Below, in pieces: positions 6,909 through 45,486 of a DNA stretch of 64,000 nt (position 1 is the stretch's first letter; the number at the start of each line of letters is the position of its first letter). This DNA comes from Escherichia coli (GTDB lineage Bacteria; Pseudomonadota; Gammaproteobacteria; Enterobacterales; Enterobacteriaceae). The stretch is from the NCBI GenBank assembly GCA_025336725.1, contig GCA_025336725.1_3647.1. One strand, 5' to 3'. The notes below the pieces were generated by a model. That model made no database searches. It saw only the letters and a program-made list of their open reading frames with translations, and had not been told where the DNA came from. The translations under genes were made by a program, and so were the position numbers.

Positions 6909-7295
6909 TTATTCACCAATAGTCTGGACGTGAACTTTGTTACCTAAAGCTTCCAACTTATCCAGAATTCTTTGGTCTGCTTTAGCTCCGTCTGCACCTA
7001 ACAGCATATCTTTTGCAAAGGTAACACCGTGGACGGCAACAACCAGGTTATAGGACTGACCCACTTCTAATGGTTTTGCAAGATGAACTTTTCCTGCATC
7101 TTTGACAAGAGCACGGTCAACAAGAACGCCGTACACATCAGAACCGTCTGCGTTAGCGATAGTCCCAGTTTTTGTTACAACAGTGCCAGCGTGGTGATGC
7201 TCTGTCAGTGTTACCTTGATCTCTTTAAAATTGTAGCCAGCATCGCTAGAATCAACTTTGCCGAGCACGATATCAGAATATTGAGCGGTAATCAT
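6909..7295 (-). CDS. Head decoration-like protein (putative)
   Basis: 128-aa ORF between scaffold and capsid genes (lambda D-like position). Confidence 0.35.
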   Translation of the reverse strand: MITAQYSDIVLGKVDSSDAGYNFKEIKVTLTEHHHAGTVVTKTGTIANADGSDVYGVLVDRALVKDAGKVHLAKPLEVGQSYNLVVAVHGVTFAKDMLLGADGAKADQRILDKLEALGNKVHVQTIGE

Positions 7296-7315: not shown

Positions 7316-7789
7316 TTATTTGTTAGATTCTGCACGTGCACGAGCAAGTGCTTTTGCAACGTTTTCAGCAAGAATTTCTTCTGCGGATTTTGCAATATCA
7401 TCCACAACAGGTTCGCCATCATTACCATGTTCAGTGGTGGCAAACTCTTCTTTGGTTTTATGCACCTCTGCTTCCAGCTCTTCAATTTTTGCTTGAGCTT
7501 TCTCCAGCATAGCTACGATAGGTTCGTTAGCTTTTTCCAGCATGAAGTCAACCAGGGTTGCATGATCTTCTTCACCAACAAAGCTTAAAGCTTGAGCTTT
7601 AGCCAGCATTTTAGCTTTTTCAACTTCAACCTGGGCCTTGATGATTTCTTCAGCTTTACTCTGGGTTGCTTTCAGCTCTTCTACTTGCTTCAGCAGATCC
7701 AGATACTCTTTAGTTTTGGTTACGTCCACCGGATTCTCCTCGGTATTTGCGGATTTTGCAACATCATCCACCTCGGTAGTTTTATCCAC
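7316..7789 (-). CDS. Scaffolding protein (putative)
   Basis: 157-aa acidic, Ala/Glu/Lys-rich predicted coiled coil, upstream of capsid gene. Confidence 0.45.
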   Translation of the reverse strand: MDKTTEVDDVAKSANTEENPVDVTKTKEYLDLLKQVEELKATQSKAEEIIKAQVEVEKAKMLAKAQALSFVGEEDHATLVDFMLEKANEPIVAMLEKAQAKIEELEAEVHKTKEEFATTEHGNDGEPVVDDIAKSAEEILAENVAKALARARAESNK

Positions 7790-7809
7790 CTCAGCAGGTT
7801 CCTGTCTAC

Positions 7810-8295
7810 TTAACAGATCAGGTTCCCTTCTTTATCGAAGAGATCAGCGGTTACTTGTTCAAAAATCTGTTGTGTTTTTAACGAACTGCTCTGATCTACC
7901 ACGTTAAGCTGCTTGCCTTCTTTTGCAGCTTTATGAATGGTCACGTTATCACAACGCTCTTCCAGCCATGCAATGCAAGACTCTGCGTCAGCTTGCGCCC
8001 ATTCCCAATCAGGATGCTCTTTAGCCCAAGCTTCCTCTTCAATCTCAAAACCAAGCATGTGTGCGAGTGCTTTGGCATCGTCATACCACATATCGAAGAA
8101 ACGACGCAGGTATTCTTCAAAACTCAGCTCCACAGTAACTTGGCGAAGTGCCTTAACAATATCGTCTGTTAACTGCTCAGGCTGAAGATCACTCTTCATC
8201 AAAAGAGATACAGGTCTGTTGTTAGCGCTATAGCCTTGCGCCTTATGGCACAGGGCAATCCCCTTCTCTTTAATAGTGATTGTTTTTTCAGACAT
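7810..8295 (-). CDS. Hypothetical head morphogenesis protein
   Basis: 161-aa track ORF between portal and scaffold. Confidence 0.3.
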   Translation of the reverse strand: MSEKTITIKEKGIALCHKAQGYSANNRPVSLLMKSDLQPEQLTDDIVKALRQVTVELSFEEYLRRFFDMWYDDAKALAHMLGFEIEEEAWAKEHPDWEWAQADAESCIAWLEERCDNVTIHKAAKEGKQLNVVDQSSSLKTQQIFEQVTADLFDKEGNLIC

Positions 8296-8870
8296 TATTC
8301 ATTGCCCTCTTCTACAACACTGATCCCGAAATTTACATTGGTAATTTCGCCCGTCTCTTCATCAACATTACCTGTTGCCTGAATGCTTAGGCCACCAACA
8401 ATGCCAGCCTTCTTAGCTTCCCATAATTCAGGATTATTGTATTTAACTTTAGCAACCCAAGAGCCAGCCTTGATGACCTGCTCAGTACCAATTACTACAA
8501 CATCAAACTCTTCTTGAATCCACGTCTTTTCAATAGTGAAAGCATCTGTAGAGGTCAAGTGAAAAAGGTTTTCAGAAACTAGGCCTGCGGCGTATGCTGC
8601 GTCCCAATTATCTTTAGCCTTTTTGATAGTGTCTTTACTCATCCACTCACCGTGAGCATCTTTAGTGTCAGGTTCGTAGATGATTTCGTAGGAAATCATT
8701 TCTTCCTGTGGCATCTTATTCCCCATGTGGATTATTTTATCACGCCAAAGGAGGTTTTGCAACCCCCTGTGTTGATAATTTTTAATTTTCCATGTTAGAT
8801 ATGGAATTATCTCTGGTTGATGACATCTTAGAAGTGCCGTTGCCAGTGGATCCTGCAGCCATACCATCAC
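8295..8870 (-). CDS. Hypothetical head morphogenesis protein
   Basis: Track ORF overlaps portal 3' end; true start probably the internal Met (MPQEEMISYE...). Confidence 0.3.
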   Translation of the reverse strand: MMVWLQDPLATALLRCHQPEIIPYLTWKIKNYQHRGLQNLLWRDKIIHMGNKMPQEEMISYEIIYEPDTKDAHGEWMSKDTIKKAKDNWDAAYAAGLVSENLFHLTSTDAFTIEKTWIQEEFDVVVIGTEQVIKAGSWVAKVKYNNPELWEAKKAGIVGGLSIQATGNVDEETGEITNVNFGISVVEEGNE

Positions 8871-10338
8871 CAGCTCTACTGATGTCCTGGCCCAAGAGTT
8901 TCATTAGCTCTTCCTGATCCATGTCCTCGTCAAATCTTTCATCAAACCCGCCTACTTCAAGAATCTTATTAATTACTGCAGGAGTTTTTGGCAAGTAACC
9001 TACAGCACCGATCCTCTGGACAAACTTGGAGAAGCTCTCCATGTCCACTTCTTCAATCAGACCGGGTTTCAGTTTAGGCATATCATCATCTTCAAGGATG
9101 ATACCATTCAATGCCAGAAGCTGTGGAATAAGATCTTTATTGAAGGCCTCAGTGATAATATCTATATCACGCTGAACAAAATGCCCATGGATAGACTGTT
9201 TTGACTCAGACAGGGAGAAGGATCCAACGTTATCGTTACCGAGGTTAATAAATCCAGCACCGAAACGGTCAAGAATCGCCTTCTTACGGGCATCAATCAA
9301 ATCTTTAGTTGAATACTGCTTACCCATGCCGTCAACACCCTTCAGGGTCATGGAGTAAAGCTCTTTACCAGACTTATCTCTATCAGACGGAAGTATAAAG
9401 AAACTTTGCTCCCCACTGTGGGCATTTGCTGCGTCAAGCATAAGATCTGCAACCATTCTCCCTTCCATTGAATTCGGGTCAATACTGGCCTTGTTCAGAA
9501 TATTGGAAGGAATTTTCAGCTCAAGCACACCACCAAGGTCTTTGGAGCAGCCAACAACCTCAAGGTTTTCAATCAGAACTTTCTCACGGAAAGATCTGTA
9601 GCAACCTATCATCGGTGACACACCTGCAGGATTAGACTCTGTTCCTGACAAGGTCATGAGCATAAGCTTCTTGGCAGGGATGAAAATTTCAGGCTCATTA
9701 AAGCCTTTTGAAGGCATTGCAGCAAGAGGACCAGCCCAGCGTGCATTCTGCGTGTTTAGAAATGCATTAGGTGATTGATAAATACCTGTCAGTGTTCTAC
9801 TATTCTTGTCAAAGACAAACGGCTCTGATCTGGACAAACTGGCCTGAGGTCGGAATGCAATTTTATCAATAAGAAGCATCCCGGCATATTTACCTTCTTT
9901 CTCTCTGCGGTATACTTTCTCAAACAGTGAAAAACCATACTCGTTAAAGGTAGCTGCGCTTCTTGCAATATCTCGAAGAGTTTGCTGGTTTGCCAAATTA
10001 CGCAAAGAATACTCTATAAGCTCGGCAGCTTTCCTAGAGTCTTCACTTTTAACATTATAAAGGATCTTAAAATCATTAAATGCTTTCGTGATGAAAACAT
10101 ATTTTGTATCTAAGGCAGTAGCAACTGTGGAATCACATTTCATAGTCTCCACTGTGGCAATCAGCTGAGGCCAACGCAATTCCTCAACCATCATAGATTG
10201 TGATTCTGCCATAATTTGGGAAAGTGCGCCAGAACCGATCTCACTCATACGAACATTATGAGTTGGTGCGCCTGCGTTCCCAGATTTATTCACAGTTTTG
10301 GCTGTGGCGTTGTGTTTCCTGCGGTTCTTTTTGGACAC
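8782..10338 (-). CDS. Portal protein (putative)
   Basis: 518-aa ORF immediately downstream of the large terminase on the same strand. Confidence 0.6.
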   Translation of the reverse strand: MSKKNRRKHNATAKTVNKSGNAGAPTHNVRMSEIGSGALSQIMAESQSMMVEELRWPQLIATVETMKCDSTVATALDTKYVFITKAFNDFKILYNVKSEDSRKAAELIEYSLRNLANQQTLRDIARSAATFNEYGFSLFEKVYRREKEGKYAGMLLIDKIAFRPQASLSRSEPFVFDKNSRTLTGIYQSPNAFLNTQNARWAGPLAAMPSKGFNEPEIFIPAKKLMLMTLSGTESNPAGVSPMIGCYRSFREKVLIENLEVVGCSKDLGGVLELKIPSNILNKASIDPNSMEGRMVADLMLDAANAHSGEQSFFILPSDRDKSGKELYSMTLKGVDGMGKQYSTKDLIDARKKAILDRFGAGFINLGNDNVGSFSLSESKQSIHGHFVQRDIDIITEAFNKDLIPQLLALNGIILEDDDMPKLKPGLIEEVDMESFSKFVQRIGAVGYLPKTPAVINKILEVGGFDERFDEDMDQEELMKLLGQDISRAGDGMAAGSTGNGTSKMSSTRDNSISNMEN

Positions 10339-10440: not shown

Positions 10441-11583
10441 TTAGATAAAACGCTTGAACATAGAGGGTGATGAGATTGATGGAATCACACAAGGCAGCGC
10501 TACCTCCTCTTTCTCCAGGAAATTAATCGCAGAAGCTACACAGTCGGCCCAGTCGTCTTTTCTGTTAAATGTTGATCTTTCCCCGTTGAATTTTTCAAGT
10601 TCAGTCAGAAATGCTTCCAGAGTATCAGGATGAAAACTGGATTTTACAATCCTCACCATCCCTTGTTGGGCAAGATTGGCAAAAGGTGAGAACCTTGTCA
10701 GTTTAGATTTGTTGGAAGGCATTGGGTCTTCTTCAACCCTGAACCCTTCGGCGAGCAAGGATCTGGATGAGGTTAAGAACTCACTCTTACCTGCCTGACC
10801 AGGGTCCACAGAAAATACGATTATGCAATCATCTCCATCAAACTGCGCCTGTTTTCTGATGATCACATCTCGTTCCCCAGCCTTTTTACAGAACTTGCCT
10901 TCCAGACCTGTGGAATACCTCCCGTCATCCACGTTCTCAGGACAATAGTCCCCAGATAGGTAATAAAAGCCGTCGCTATCTTTACTTACCTTAACACTGG
11001 CGGTAAAGTCAGGAAATTTATTACCGGAAGTTCTCTCGGTTCCTGCCTTATCCCATGCCCTGCAAGATACTGATCCAAGAGGTACTCTATCGGCATCACG
11101 AAGGAAAGATCTTTGGAAATAGTTTGCACCCTCAGGTTTGGCAAACCAGTTGCCATGAAGAAGCTGGGCTTTTTCCAGCTCTGGCAGACCTTCAAGGAAA
11201 GCAAGGTATTCTGGGTTGTCTCTCAGGCATACAGGATTATCGAAAATTGTTGCGCCTATAAACGAGAATGACAACGGTCTTGGCTTGATTTCCACACCTA
11301 GTCCATTGACCGTAGTGTATTTCTCTATTAACTCCTCTTTAGAGTCTCCCCAGATAAACTCACCGTCGCGTCGGATAAAATATCTTTTCTTACCACATTT
11401 CTCCGGATCTGGATACCCTTCATCGTCCAACCACCACCTAACCAGTTTGGCAAGCATGTGTTCTGAGTCGGGGTTACAACTGATAACCATTCTTGATGGA
11501 TACTTTGACTGAGATCGCAGACGAGACATCAAATAGTCTATCTGCTCCCATTCGAATTGCGTGCCTTCATCGAAGCAAACCAT
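10441..11583 (-). CDS. terL: Large terminase, Walker B and nuclease segment
   Basis: Begins MVCFDEGTQF (Walker B hhhhDE); same frame as 11611..11988, separated from it by a single TAA at 11608-11610. Confidence 0.75.
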   Translation of the reverse strand: MVCFDEGTQFEWEQIDYLMSRLRSQSKYPSRMVISCNPDSEHMLAKLVRWWLDDEGYPDPEKCGKKRYFIRRDGEFIWGDSKEELIEKYTTVNGLGVEIKPRPLSFSFIGATIFDNPVCLRDNPEYLAFLEGLPELEKAQLLHGNWFAKPEGANYFQRSFLRDADRVPLGSVSCRAWDKAGTERTSGNKFPDFTASVKVSKDSDGFYYLSGDYCPENVDDGRYSTGLEGKFCKKAGERDVIIRKQAQFDGDDCIIVFSVDPGQAGKSEFLTSSRSLLAEGFRVEEDPMPSNKSKLTRFSPFANLAQQGMVRIVKSSFHPDTLEAFLTELEKFNGERSTFNRKDDWADCVASAINFLEKEEVALPCVIPSISSPSMFKRFI

Positions 11584-11610
11584 GGTGTATTCAAGTCCTT
11601 GATGGTTAGT

Positions 11611-11988
11611 TTATCTTGGACATACTCCATGTGGCAGTATTTTACAACGGCCTCCTTTTTTGCTCCTGTCCCACTTGCCAGTGCTCGGATCAAACCGTGG
11701 AAAAATAAACTTATGATCCTTCTCTCTGAACTTTGGTTTAATGTTTTCAGGCAGATCACTGTAAATAGCTACTGCTTTAGGCCATAGCCCACCCTCACCT
11801 TCCAACTGTGGAGTTGTTCTTCGGAACATAACCACAGAGCTGTGTGGGTCATCAATAATTTTAAGTGGCATTAGCTGCAAGAGGAACGACTTGCCAGAAC
11901 CGGCTGCACCTCCGATCACCAAAATATCTGCATCGTTCTCAAGGATCATCTTCTGCTTTTCAGAACACGGTCCGTAAATCTTAGACAT
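11611..11988 (-). CDS. terL: Large terminase, N-terminal ATPase segment
   Basis: Walker A GGAAGSGKS; ends at an in-frame TAA 8 codons before the downstream segment. Confidence 0.75.
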   Translation of the reverse strand: MSKIYGPCSEKQKMILENDADILVIGGAAGSGKSFLLQLMPLKIIDDPHSSVVMFRRTTPQLEGEGGLWPKAVAIYSDLPENIKPKFREKDHKFIFPRFDPSTGKWDRSKKGGRCKILPHGVCPR

Positions 11989-14187: not shown

Positions 14188-14288
14188 CNNNNNNNNNNNN
14201 NNNNNNNNNNNNNNNNNNNNNNNNNNNNNNNNNNNNNNNNNNNNNNNNNNNNNNNNNNNNNNNNNNNNNNNNNNNNNNNNNNNNNNNN
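14188..14288. other. Assembly gap (run of N)
   Basis: About 100 consecutive N characters in the sequence. Confidence 0.95.
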
Positions 14289-42031: not shown

Positions 42032-42061
42032 TTGACAAAGCTTTGTTTAGACGGGTATAAT
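42032..42061 (+). promoter_or_regulatory. Sigma70-type promoter
   Basis: TTGACA - 18 nt - TATAAT. Confidence 0.5.
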
Positions 42062-42092: not shown

Positions 42093-42206
42093 ATGGCTAA
42101 AAAGGCCTTGAAGAAGGCGTATAAAAAAGAGATTGCGCTTGAGCTTAAGAAAAAACACAAGCGTGAAAAGAAACATCATGAGGATGAAGAGGGGGTGCAA
42201 CAGTGA
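42093..42206 (+). CDS. Small basic protein (37 aa), not in ORF track
   Basis: ATG after GAGGAGGTG; Lys-rich MAKKALKKAYKKEIALELKKKHKREKK. Confidence 0.3.
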   Translation: MAKKALKKAYKKEIALELKKKHKREKKHHEDEEGVQQ

Positions 42207-42591: not shown

Positions 42592-43380
42592 ATGGGTCGA
42601 GCTAAAGAAACAAAACGCATGCGTGATGAAGCCAGAGAGGCTCGTAAATCTGATCGCCTGCGTAAGGCTGCTGAGAAATTTGCTGACGAACGAGAGCACA
42701 CCGCTCCAGCTCTCCGACCAATGAATAAAAAGCAGCAAAAGTATCTTGATTATCTAGGGTCACGTAAGATTATTATTGTAAACGGTGTGTTTGGGTCTGG
42801 TAAGACATTCATGGCATCTGCATATGCAGGTGATCTTCTGCGTAAGAACGAGATTGATAAGATCATTGTTGCACGCCCTTACGTTCAGACAGGAAAGACT
42901 TCAGGATTTAAACCCGGAAATGCAATGCAGAAACTGTGGCCCTATCTTCGGAGTATGATGGACACGATTTGTCGTCGTGTTGGCAAAGGTGCTTTTGCAG
43001 CAATGCTGGGAGACGGTCAGAACAGCCGTATCGAGATTTGTGAAGTTGAAAGTATTCGTGGTCGTAGTTTCGATGAACGATGCTTTGTCCTAATTGACGA
43101 GGCACAGCAAACTAACCCTGAAGAAATGTTGTCAATTATCACAAGGATTTCCGATCAGGCCACCCTTGTAATTATGGGGGACAATAGCCAACGAGACATT
43201 CCTGGTAAATCTGGCCTTGCATGGGTGACAGATTTCTTTACACGACATCCAGATCCTGAAGTTGGGATGATTAGCTTTGATAGTCCTGACGATGTTGTTC
43301 GTTCTGGACTGGGTCGTCAGATTGCACTCAATCTTATTGAGGACCGTGCAAACCGTATTTGGACTCCTGTTTCCGAGTAA
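42592..43380 (+). CDS. phoH: PhoH-like ATPase
   Basis: Walker A GVFGSGKT, Walker B VLIDEAQ. Confidence 0.7.
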   Translation: MGRAKETKRMRDEAREARKSDRLRKAAEKFADEREHTAPALRPMNKKQQKYLDYLGSRKIIIVNGVFGSGKTFMASAYAGDLLRKNEIDKIIVARPYVQTGKTSGFKPGNAMQKLWPYLRSMMDTICRRVGKGAFAAMLGDGQNSRIEICEVESIRGRSFDERCFVLIDEAQQTNPEEMLSIITRISDQATLVIMGDNSQRDIPGKSGLAWVTDFFTRHPDPEVGMISFDSPDDVVRSGLGRQIALNLIEDRANRIWTPVSE

Positions 43381-43424
43381 CATATAAGGGTGGTTATTCC
43401 ACCCTTGAATATCTAAAACACTTG

Positions 43425-43453
43425 TTGACAAACAGACAAGCTTTAGGTATTAT
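43425..43453 (+). promoter_or_regulatory. Sigma70-type promoter
   Basis: TTGACA - 17 nt - TATTAT, preceded by hairpin GGGTGG-ttatt-CCACCC. Confidence 0.5.
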
Positions 43454-43481
43454 TGCCTGACAAAACGAGGAGAAGAACAGT

Positions 43482-43793
43482 ATGGCTACGATACAAGAGA
43501 GATTGAATAAAATCTACTGCCTGTTTGTCTATAACGGCGAGACAATTTTGGCAAATAAAGGATACAAGAATGTGTGGATTAAGGACAGCGGTGGTAATAT
43601 AATCAACTTGGCTCTACTACGTGAGCGAAGACACCGATTCTTCACTGAGTCTCGTGTTATTGAAAGCAACACCTTTTACAGAACAGGTGATAAAGTAATT
43701 GTTGACAATGACACGTGGTATGTGGTAGACTGGCAATCGTTGACCTGTGATGCTTCTGACAATTGCAAGTATTCCATGGTAATTGCCAAATAA
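43482..43793 (+). CDS. Hypothetical protein
   Basis: 103-aa track ORF. Confidence 0.3.
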   Translation: MATIQERLNKIYCLFVYNGETILANKGYKNVWIKDSGGNIINLALLRERRHRFFTESRVIESNTFYRTGDKVIVDNDTWYVVDWQSLTCDASDNCKYSMVIAK

Positions 43794-43854
43794 AGGCAAA
43801 CGAGAATCAGGTTTAAATAAATCGCTTTTAATTTTCCAACATTAAGGACCTCAC

Positions 43855-44901
43855 ATGAATTTAACACCTCGCAGCACCATGGTACACGGCATGAAAGAAA
43901 AACAGAACGGCTTCGAACCGATGAGTAATAAAATGTTTGGTATGCCGGGTGGTATTATGGAAACATACAGCTACCCAACACCTGTTGTTGACCACGTTCT
44001 TTATATCGACGATTTGGAAGATCTACAAGACCATATGTCTCGTCTGCAGACGATCCGTATGGCTCAGCCGGAAGAAAGCATTCGGGTGATCATCAATAGC
44101 CCTGGTGGTTGCGTGCACATTGCAATGGCATATCTGCAGGCATTCCGCGAGTCTCAGGCAAGCGTTGTTGTACATGCTGAAGGGATGTGCTGCTCTGCTG
44201 GAACAATCTTATGGCTGGGTTGCAAAGAACGCACCGTGGCTCCAGATACTGAGTTTATGTTCCACTACTACCAAGGTGGCACTTATGGCAACGGTGTGAA
44301 CATGAATACTCAGGTCAGCTACTGGAAAAAACGTTTCGAACGTCTGATCGAAAAATACTACGGTGGGGTGCTGACAGAAGATGAGATCGCATCCATCACG
44401 GCTGGTGGAGAAGTGTGGTTGGACGGAGAGGAGCTGGCAGCTAGAACTGGAGCTATCATTCTGGACGATGAAAATATTCAGCGTATCCAGAACGGGCAGA
44501 AACCGAAAAAGCTCCTGGCAAAAGGTGATGAAGGGGTATTAGGTGAAGCAGGTCTGCCAGAGATTCACCAGTGCACCTCCCTGGACGAACTGGTTCATGC
44601 TGTTGAGTCTGCAAAAGCAGGTGGTGCGAAAGACGATGTTCACACTGTGTTCCTGAATCTGCAGATGGAAAGTGGTGAGACCGTCCGGATCGGCCTCGGA
44701 GAGATTACCTCAGAAGATCTGCAGCGATTCTCTGTGGTAGAGCTTCAGGACATTTTGTCCCAATTGAAAACCACCCTGAACGGCGGCGAAGAAGTTCAGG
44801 TGAAAGATAAGACCCGTAAGCGTCTGGTGGACAATATTATTAAAACAGCAAAAGAGCTCAATGAAAAAATCCTGGGCGCAGGAATTGTCGAAGAAGCTTA
44901 A
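43855..44901 (+). CDS. ClpP-like serine protease with ~150-aa C-terminal extension
   Basis: INSPGG, GMCCSAGT (Ser), FMFHYYQGG (His), VWLDGEE (Asp) match the ClpP fold and triad. Confidence 0.55.
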   Translation: MNLTPRSTMVHGMKEKQNGFEPMSNKMFGMPGGIMETYSYPTPVVDHVLYIDDLEDLQDHMSRLQTIRMAQPEESIRVIINSPGGCVHIAMAYLQAFRESQASVVVHAEGMCCSAGTILWLGCKERTVAPDTEFMFHYYQGGTYGNGVNMNTQVSYWKKRFERLIEKYYGGVLTEDEIASITAGGEVWLDGEELAARTGAIILDDENIQRIQNGQKPKKLLAKGDEGVLGEAGLPEIHQCTSLDELVHAVESAKAGGAKDDVHTVFLNLQMESGETVRIGLGEITSEDLQRFSVVELQDILSQLKTTLNGGEEVQVKDKTRKRLVDNIIKTAKELNEKILGAGIVEEA

Positions 44902-44952: not shown

Positions 44953-45486
44953 ATGACTTGTGCTAGAAAACCTGATGAACAACGTAACGCTTACGATGAG
45001 TATGTGACACCGGAGTGGTGTGCAGAAGGGCTGTATGACCTTATTCCGTTCCCAGAAGACTGGACATACTTAGAGCCTTGCAGGAATAGCGCTTCAGGTG
45101 TGTTCTACTCCCGTATGCCGTTAGGATCTGCATGGGGAGAAATTCAAGAAGGTGTTGACTATCTGAATACAGAATACAACCATGTTGACTGTATTATCAC
45201 CAACCCGCCGTACAGCCTGGCTCGTGAGTTTGTGGACAAGGCGTTGAAAGATGCCGACGTAGTTATTATGCTTTTGCGTCTTAATTTTCTGGAAAGCAAG
45301 GCCAGATTTGAATGGTGGCTTGATAATGCACCTACCACTGTGATCACAATATCTAAGCGTCCGTCATTCCAATCCAATGGTAGAACGGATGGGCAGGCAT
45401 ATGCATATTTTGTATGGGACAAGAAAAACCGTCTAGACTTGCCGCCATTTATGTGGTTGGCACCACCAGAGGCAGACTTGAAATGA
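44953..45486 (+). CDS. Small phage-type N6-adenine DNA methyltransferase
   Basis: 177 aa with catalytic motif IITNPPYS. Confidence 0.6.
   Translation: MTCARKPDEQRNAYDEYVTPEWCAEGLYDLIPFPEDWTYLEPCRNSASGVFYSRMPLGSAWGEIQEGVDYLNTEYNHVDCIITNPPYSLAREFVDKALKDADVVIMLLRLNFLESKARFEWWLDNAPTTVITISKRPSFQSNGRTDGQAYAYFVWDKKNRLDLPPFMWLAPPEADLK

Follow-up and report, generated by a model that had tools for sequence, protein, structure and literature searches.

The stretch of DNA analysed here (the window, 64,000 nucleotides in all) shows ~93% nucleotide identity to the rV5-like coliphages FV3, BP9, JES2013 and LL12 (Vequintavirinae, genomes of ~137 kb). As judged from GC skew and the ORF map, a minus-strand structural block extends up to ~17.5 kb, and a second block, on the plus strand, reaches from there to ~56 kb. 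The gene under study encodes a ClpP-like protein and lies in the plus-strand block, near genes for an anaerobic ribonucleotide reductase (NrdD/NrdG), a PhoH-like protein and a DNA methyltransferase. The first-pass annotation had placed the ORF in a metabolic region on the strand opposite to the head module. This was confirmed: the gene belongs to a nucleotide-metabolism block on the plus strand (43.9 kb), ~35 kb away from the minus-strand head module (5.8-10.3 kb). The features of both regions are collected in Table 1.

Table 1. Features of the head module and of the ClpP-like locus in the window.
Feature	Position	Strand	Basis or remark
Major capsid protein, lambda gpE type, 336 aa	5848..6858	-	Pfam Phage_cap_E, E=1.2e-39; without N-terminal propeptide/'delta domain'
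Head decoration protein	6909-7295	-	Head-module annotation
Head scaffold gene, phrog_2970	7316..8295	-	Two ORFs here (7810-8295 and 7316-7789), split by a small indel
XkdF-type Peptidase_S78_2 protein, probable prohead protease	8295..8714	-	Pfam PF14550, E=1.2e-17; best PHROG phrog_1530
Portal protein	8782..10338	-	Head-module annotation, in agreement with BASEL
PhoH-like ATPase gene, conserved upstream neighbour	42592..43380	+	rV5 annotation; NCBIfam PhoH E=3.6e-40, under the curated cutoff
Sigma-70-like promoter, TTGACA-17-TATTAT (11/12)	43425..43453	+	5' of the small ORF/ClpP-like pair; corresponds to rV5 P121
Small ORF directly upstream of the ClpP-like gene, phrog_5456, 103 aa	43482..43793	+	Corresponds to rV5 ORF121
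Shine-Dalgarno AAGGA of the ClpP-like gene	43844..43848	+	6 nt 5' of the ATG, read from the sequence
ClpP-like serine peptidase gene (predicted)	43855..44901	+	348 aa + stop, intact ORF; rV5 gp117/ORF122 orthologue; phrog_5410
N-terminal region, aa 1-45, predicted disordered	43855..43989	+	pLDDT <50 for residues 1-40
ClpP-fold catalytic core, aa 46-212	43990..44490	+	AlphaFold2 pLDDT ~85-92; Foldseek; phmmer matches to PDB ClpP chains
Codon of Ser114 (E. coli ClpP S97), predicted nucleophile	44194..44196	+	Invariant in alignments A1, A3 and A4
Codon of His137 (ClpP H122), predicted base	44263..44265	+	Invariant in alignments
Codon of Glu186, at the position of ClpP catalytic Asp171	44410..44412	+	phmmer alignment to PDB 9ndj: 'erDfw' vs 'ggEvw'
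Flexible linker, aa 213-240	44491..44574	+	pLDDT <50 at 223-240; length and sequence variable in alignment A1
C-terminal alpha/beta domain, aa 241-348 (~100 aa)	44575..44898	+	No detectable relative; seen only fused to the ClpP-like core
DNA methyltransferase gene, downstream	44953..45486	+	Same order in Certrevirus PBES 02

The ClpP-like gene is a real, conserved and already annotated gene of the rV5 type. Its product is 95-99% identical in about 119 phage records (tblastn) and 97.7% identical to rV5 gp117/ORF122, and it matches the phrog_5410 profile ('ATP-dependent protease') over its full length, C-terminal domain included (E=4.5e-153, with residues 24-344 aligned to positions 4-322 of the 323 in the profile). 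The rV5 gp117/phrog_5410 proteins, which are named 'ClpP ATP-dependent protease subunit' or 'ClpP-like protease' in the Vequintavirinae, have the same series of neighbours (PhoH, small ORF, ClpP-like gene, DNA methyltransferase) and show no material difference from the window protein. The gene has been known since the rV5 genome and forms a PHROG family of its own. Its non-structural nature is implicit in the curated BASEL annotations, where a 'ClpP-like protease' is carried alongside a separate 'prohead protease'. The small phrog_5456 ORF was present in all Vequintavirinae-like loci examined, and in some relatives a phrog_7224 ORF lies between it and the ClpP-like gene. The sigma-70-like promoter in front of the pair was considered as a sign of early timing and rejected, since rV5 has such promoters before its structural genes too.

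The Pfam CLP_protease model (PF00574) is matched above its gathering threshold (49.2 vs 20.2 bits, E=7.6e-13, residues 59-168), and the AlphaFold core superposes on solved ClpP chains, including ClpX-bound ClpP (Foldseek, TM ~0.7 normalised to the target, E ~4e-9). The ClpP fold proposed in the first-pass annotation is thus borne out. Across 20 homologues, the most distant at 38% identity, neither Ser114 nor His137 varies; both are also kept in the ICP1, Otagovirus, Pakpunavirus, Sugarlandvirus and Certrevirus relatives and in E. coli ClpP, and the oxyanion Gly of ClpP is conserved in the window protein. The column equivalent to Asp171 is more variable: it holds Glu in the window protein, in P0033 and in the Certrevirus, phiPsa347 and PAK_P2 proteins, Asp in those of ICP1 and Sugarlandvirus, and Gln in the 4MG/Hena1-type proteins. 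An intact Ser/His/Asp triad had been read from the sequence at first. This holds for the first two members but not for the third, and the triad appears to be intact solely as Ser-His-acid. Glu186 could stand in for the Asp, while Gln as the third residue in some relatives raises doubt on the activity of the protein in those clades.

The regions that flank the core differ more strongly from ClpP. In the alignment with E. coli ClpP, the proline-rich residues 1-45 lie where ClpP has its axial loops and helix alphaA, and they bear a conserved FG.PG...Y.YP motif (conserved columns F28, G29, Y40 and P41). The extension of ~149 aa behind the core is charged, as had been described (30% charged residues), and acidic (pI 4.85), but it is not simply helical: a short helix is followed by the disordered linker and then by a compact alpha/beta domain. 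The compact part of this domain (aa 241-341) comprises two beta-strands and four helices, in the order N-terminal helix, beta-hairpin, short helix and two longer helices, and when modelled alone it gave a pLDDT of 76. In the full-length AlphaFold2 model the separate domain spans residues 243-341. No family was found for the domain in Pfam, and BFVD returned one match, which is probably a family member. A profile search against 1.84 billion representatives gave 9 matches, and the genuine ones all carry the same ClpP fusion. No similarity to the scaffold of the same phage was detected (hhalign probability 0.2%), and none of the viral fold matches listed for the domain is described as a scaffold.

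We then consider whether the protein retains what is needed for work with a Clp unfoldase. The curated ClpP cutoffs are missed, TIGR00493 scoring 32.8 vs 308.6 bits and all other ClpP models staying far below cutoff too. The positions Y60, Y62, F82, I90, M92, F112 and L114 of E. coli ClpP, which we take to be its hydrophobic IGF-loop pocket, correspond to R77, I79, E99, H107, E109, T127 and A129 in the window protein, in an alignment of ~20% identity. R77, E99, H107 and E109 are invariant in the ClpP-like family. No ClpX, ClpA or Lon was found in the rV5 gene set. The docking features for ClpX/ClpA therefore do not appear to be conserved, as far as can be judged from the primary structure, and the protein is probably not 'ATP-dependent' in the canonical way; the GenBank label of that wording finds no support in the sequence features examined. 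As a separate observation, rV5 encodes a MoxR-type AAA+ protein.

Comparison with three groups of ClpP-superfamily proteins helps to place the window protein. With cellular ClpP (MEROPS S14; E. coli ClpP, PDB 1TYF/6WR2) it has in common the fold, the Ser, the His, the oxyanion Gly and the handle helix, whereas it is only ~20% identical, has Glu for Asp171, lacks gating loops and helix alphaA, has changed pocket residues and carries an additional C-terminal domain. The highest-scoring curated model is NF045542, 'head maturation protease, ClpP-related', with 62.3 bits, although its cutoff of 120 is not reached; the cellular ClpP models score 33-41 bits. The ClpP-related head-maturation proteases (NF045542; phrog_1684/94/133; e.g. 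Gordonia phage gene 4) are ~31% identical to it over the core, and phrog_1684 is matched with E=2.4e-23. Genes of the NF045542 type lie between portal and capsid genes and their products act inside procapsids, while the window gene lies elsewhere and another protease fills that slot. The short phage ClpP-like proteins (phrog_1827; ICP1 gp211, Otagovirus phiPsa347 gp048, Pakpunavirus PAK_P2 gp169 and Sugarlandvirus) have the same divergent core with Ser-His-Asp/Glu. Their genes, as in the window, lie outside head modules, among nucleotide-metabolism genes and often just 3' of PhoH. These proteins are mostly ~180-235 aa long without an extension; the ICP1 protein has 326 aa, and its extension is not homologous to that of the window protein (hhalign probability 0.4%). 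Taken together, these comparisons suggest that the window protein represents a separate clade within the ClpP superfamily. Its origin may lie among the head proteases of phages, enzymes that work with no unfoldase; such a descent is plausible because the scores against them exceed those against cellular ClpP.

The first-pass annotation had seen no prohead protease in the head module. It can be seen from Table 1 that this is incorrect, since the ORF between the portal and scaffold genes is an XkdF-type Peptidase_S78_2 protein. The order on the minus strand is TerL, portal, XkdF-type protease, phrog_2970 scaffold, decoration protein and lambda-gpE-type capsid protein, and the curated BASEL genomes name the same series of portal, prohead protease, head scaffold, decoration protein and major capsid protein. 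The XkdF-type protein is the probable prohead protease, its proteolytic activity being predicted only. The suggestion that the ClpP-like gene is a relocated protease-scaffold gene is undercut because its premise, a head module without a protease, was wrong.

Protein lists of virions are available for several relatives. For rV5, 19 virion loci are detected and all are accounted for; ORF122 is absent from them, and so are ORFs 62 and 63 (PMC3606486). In the same data set, the capsid peptides R.KDEFGIVDLGATLDLVPR and K.DEFGIVDLGATLDLVPR, which span residues 5-22, are abundant in virion MS (PMC3606486). The capsid protein of the window has the same N-terminus as that of rV5. Because the rV5 virion peptides begin at residue 5, the rV5 capsid protein is not trimmed at its N-terminus; a mature capsid protein left unprocessed is the very outcome that the first-pass annotation had named as refuting its capsid-protease idea. 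The virion list of Pectobacterium phage CB7 (Certrevirus) includes CB7_5, a 'prohead core protein protease' whose gene adjoins the portal gene (PMC7344957) and which is taken as the counterpart of the XkdF-type protease from its name and gene position only. The ClpP-like CB7_184 has no 'MS/MS confirmed' note in GenBank, while most of the CB7 structural genes shown have one. The W70 virion list contains a phrog_1530 protease, W70_136, and no Clp protein (PMC11370258), a ClpP-like gene being only putative in W70. In the W70 homologue search the best matches of P0003 were ordinary Vequintaviruses. Absence from virions is weak evidence alone, because prohead proteases can leave the capsid, often after digesting themselves.

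Vibrio phage ICP1 shows the same pairing of two proteases: the XkdF-type gp125, named 'capsid protease', is encoded next to the coat gene, and the ClpP-like gp211 ~45 kb off. In ICP1 RNA-seq the head genes gp122-128 are classed as 'Late' and gp204-211 (nrdB, PhoH, ClpP-like) as 'Middle-late', and a nucleotide-metabolism subset that includes gp204-211 peaks at 12 min vs 16 min for the structural genes (PMC7567579). This timing is that of the ICP1 homologue, whose ClpP domain shares only about 36% of its residues with that of the window protein. The XkdF-type protease (PF14550) and the ClpP-like protein are both predicted serine proteases of one phage, but of unrelated families, and only the former has the canonical head-module slot, equivalents in the virion lists of relatives and a late ICP1 homologue.

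The neighbourhood of the gene was compared in a range of phages. PhoH followed by at least one small or variable gene and then by the ClpP-like gene is the arrangement in rV5, ICP1, Certrevirus PBES 02 and CB7, and Otagovirus phiPsa347; in phiPsa347 the PhoH and ClpP-like genes overlap by 8 nt. In Curvibacter phage P26059A the PhoH and ClpP genes are adjacent (ORFs 117 and 116, PMC5964084). Among 80 IMG/VR loci with relatives, 42 contain a PhoH gene, which is co-oriented and upstream in every case; it is within 0.18-2.1 kb in 40 of these 42, and the linkage extends to 15 of the 22 clusters formed at 70% identity. A fixed third gene between the two was considered and rejected, as the intervening genes vary by lineage: they encode a PD-(D/E)XK exonuclease, a DprA-like protein, HNH endonucleases or proteins of two unknown families, phrog_5456 and phrog_7224. 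The PhoH-less loci examined have other upstream genes, namely NrdA, NrdB and a RuvC-like resolvase (L041), a directly adjoining RuvC-like resolvase (L052) or an endolysin (L038). In PAK_P2 and Sugarlandvirus the ClpP-like gene is near a dCMP deaminase or dNMP kinase gene. No ClpP-like relative was found in a head module among the loci examined. The PhoH linkage may in part be an inherited gene order among related large myoviruses; it persists across divergence to ~25-35% identity and across turnover of the intervening genes.

We consider it likely that the window protein, the orthologue of rV5 gp117, is a serine peptidase of the ClpP superfamily with a non-structural role, directed at cytoplasmic host proteins or non-structural phage proteins, with capsid maturation left to the XkdF-type protease. 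A non-structural protease had been offered as the alternative in the first-pass annotation, and it fits the absence from virion lists, the middle-late timing in ICP1 and the placement among nucleotide-metabolism genes. It also agrees with the independent proposal of Iyer et al. 2021, who contrasted virion-linked peptidases (XkdF included) with patchy ClpP genes 'deployed against the host' (PMC7824862). In the literature on phage ClpP-like proteins we found no experimental study of the window protein, a close homologue or a family member. From the data on fold, residues, genomic context and exclusion from the head pathway we infer the remaining steps of a mechanism. The protein would be made in mid-infection together with the nucleotide-metabolism genes, like its ICP1 homologue, and would assemble by itself into ClpP-like rings. 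These may cleave cytoplasmic host proteins or non-structural phage proteins without canonical docking to ClpX/ClpA. In E. coli ClpP, truncation of the N-terminus opens the pore. With no N-terminal gate, the chamber of the phage protein may stand open at all times, so that unfolded or nascent chains could enter with no unfoldase at work; the flexibly tethered C-terminal domain is a candidate selector of substrates or partners. Overall, the protein could serve to take over the host, to recycle resources or to turn over regulatory proteins.

Other explanations have to be weighed against this one. The protein could be what most GenBank labels call it, a true 'ATP-dependent Clp protease proteolytic subunit', whose rings dock on host ClpX/ClpA or mix with host ClpP and so redirect proteolysis. 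The E. coli host supplies both ClpX and ClpA, the Pfam CLP_protease cutoff is passed, the best structural matches are ClpP chains (a ClpX-bound one among them), and the nucleophile, the general base and the oxyanion Gly of ClpP are all retained. However, the curated ClpP models are missed widely, the axial loops and helix alphaA that are needed for coupling are absent or disordered, conserved charged residues stand at the hydrophobic IGF-pocket positions, and the phage encodes no Clp unfoldase, so that we regard this explanation as unlikely. A weakly active or inactive mimic of ClpP, which would protect phage proteins by interfering with host proteolysis (it might, for instance, cap or poison the ClpP rings of the host or tie up adaptors), is extremely doubtful. 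Such a mimic would be in keeping with a third triad residue that is not Asp and is Gln in several clades, and with a docking-pocket surface that is conserved but charged; in cellular ClpP the triad Asp also couples catalysis to ring assembly. Against it, Ser114, His137 and the oxyanion-hole residues are invariant at 23-27% identity, which points to selection for catalysis, the third residue is acidic in most lineages, and no sign of an interaction with host ClpP was found.

The relocated prohead protease-scaffold fusion of the first-pass annotation, in which the ClpP-like core matures the capsid and the extension acts as scaffold or targets the protein into the procapsid, seems very improbable. 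It draws on a sequence somewhat nearer to phage head-maturation proteases (phrog_1684, NF045542) than to cellular ClpP and on the C-terminal targeting segments that are common in prohead proteases, HK97 gp4 and lambda gpC/Nu3 being examples; a protease that leaves the capsid would also be compatible with the absence from mature virions. But the NF045542 cutoff is missed (62 vs 120 bits), and a protease and a scaffold already occupy their canonical positions in the head module. The C-terminal domain is compact, alpha/beta and unrelated to the phage scaffold, with no scaffold among the listed viral fold matches. The capsid protein carries no 'delta domain', its N-terminus is left in place, and the CB7 and W70 virions list the head-module protease and no ClpP-like protein (the W70 gene for the latter being putative). 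In addition, the ICP1 homologue belongs to another temporal class than the head genes, and the relatives in the 80 loci lie in nucleotide-metabolism blocks, none of those examined being in a head module. Since the head module carries a protease of its own, the ClpP-like protein can almost certainly be dismissed as the enzyme that matures the capsid.

Beyond the non-structural role itself, the gene order could reflect a functional pair, in which a PhoH-type ATPase/RNA helicase and a gate-less peptidase form a new phage ATP-dependent degradation machine, or a module that recycles ribonucleoproteins (e.g. ribosomes) and feeds the adjacent ribonucleotide reductases, with the C-terminal domain providing the coupling in Vequintavirinae. 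The linkage in 15/22 clusters, the constant co-orientation and the gene overlap in phiPsa347 are the features cited for it, and we put it forward as a speculation that is rather improbable as it stands. Once the substrates and the PhoH link are known, they could inform on phage PhoH, a widely used marker gene, and could also reveal the Vequintavirinae protease that is sensed by protease-triggered CBASS immunity. The results correct a wrong inference: the phage does not lack a head protease, nor is the ClpP-like gene a morphogenesis gene that has been displaced. The interest that remains lies in an uncharacterised family, its PhoH link and a C-terminal domain without detectable relative. This divergent family of ClpP-like peptidases is kept outside the head modules in many large virulent phages, including rV5-like phages, ICP1, Otagovirus, Pakpunavirus, Sugarlandvirus and many uncultured ones.

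The order of the PhoH-like and ClpP-like genes is shared widely. In 42 of the 80 viral loci that encode ClpP-like relatives (L010-L089), PhoH lies upstream of the ClpP-like gene in the same orientation, and this order is present in 15 of the 22 clusters into which these loci fall when clustered at 70% identity. In the Otagovirus phiPsa347 the two genes overlap. No account of the pairing turned up among the papers searched. In every Vequintavirinae-like locus examined, an ORF of family phrog_5456 is situated 5' of the ClpP-like gene; it adjoins this gene in the window, while a phrog_7224 ORF intervenes in some relatives. The phrog_5456 product could be a partner or a regulator. Coordinates are collected in the table below.

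Features of the window and the basis on which each is listed
Feature	Position	Strand	Remark
Head scaffold gene, in two ORFs	7316-8295	-	phrog_2970; ORF comparison with Bas59
XkdF-type prohead protease	8295-8714	-	best PHROG match phrog_1530
Large terminase, in two ORFs	10441-11988	-	comparison with Bas59
Run of 100 N	14189-14288		assembly gap or masked stretch
Sigma-70 consensus promoter (TTGACA-18-TATAAT, 12/12)	42032-42061	+	upstream of ORF at 42203
PhoH and ClpP-like gene pair	42592-44901	+	also loci L010-L089
Small ORF, 103 aa, phrog_5456	43482-43793	+	upstream of ClpP-like gene

The XkdF-type prohead protease of the head module is labelled 'DNA methyltransferase' in many GenBank and RefSeq records, and its best-matching family phrog_1530 itself bears this name. 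The XkdF-type domain covers only the C-terminal part of the 379-position phrog_1530 profile, which suggests that the label stems from fusion proteins within that family. The name looks like a propagated misannotation. It was reported that the EcCdnG CBASS operon detects cleavage by phage proteases, and that it restricts the Vequintavirinae phages Bas48-59, where it relies on loop determinants other than the ones it uses against T4 (PMC12991175). Candidate triggers in Vequintavirinae are the XkdF-type protease or the ClpP-like protease.

The scaffold gene is represented in the window by two ORFs of 161 and 157 aa, and its counterpart in Bas59, a curated Vequintavirinae genome, is a single ORF of 325 aa. 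The alignment contains a small indel (TGATCTGTTAAGTAG--ACAGG versus TGATC----AAGGCGGTACAGG), and the reading frame is broken because this indel brings in stop codons. Either the assembly is wrong here or the gene is truly disrupted. With respect to virions, the phrog_2970 protein is abundant in phage W70 (W70_135, 913 spectra; PMC11370258), marginal in Pectobacterium phage CB7 (CB7_6; PMC7344957) and undetected in rV5 (PMC3606486). It may not be a classical expelled scaffold in all members.

Relative to Bas59, the large terminase frame carries a +1 insertion adjoining an A-run and then a -1 deletion about 60 nt further on; this split looks like a sequencing or assembly error. The run of 100 N is consistent with draft-quality sequence. 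About 18-23 records in the MG0656xx series that bear the name 'Campylobacter phage' share ~97% identity with the rV5-like E. coli phage of the window, and these are probably mislabelled or contaminant assemblies.
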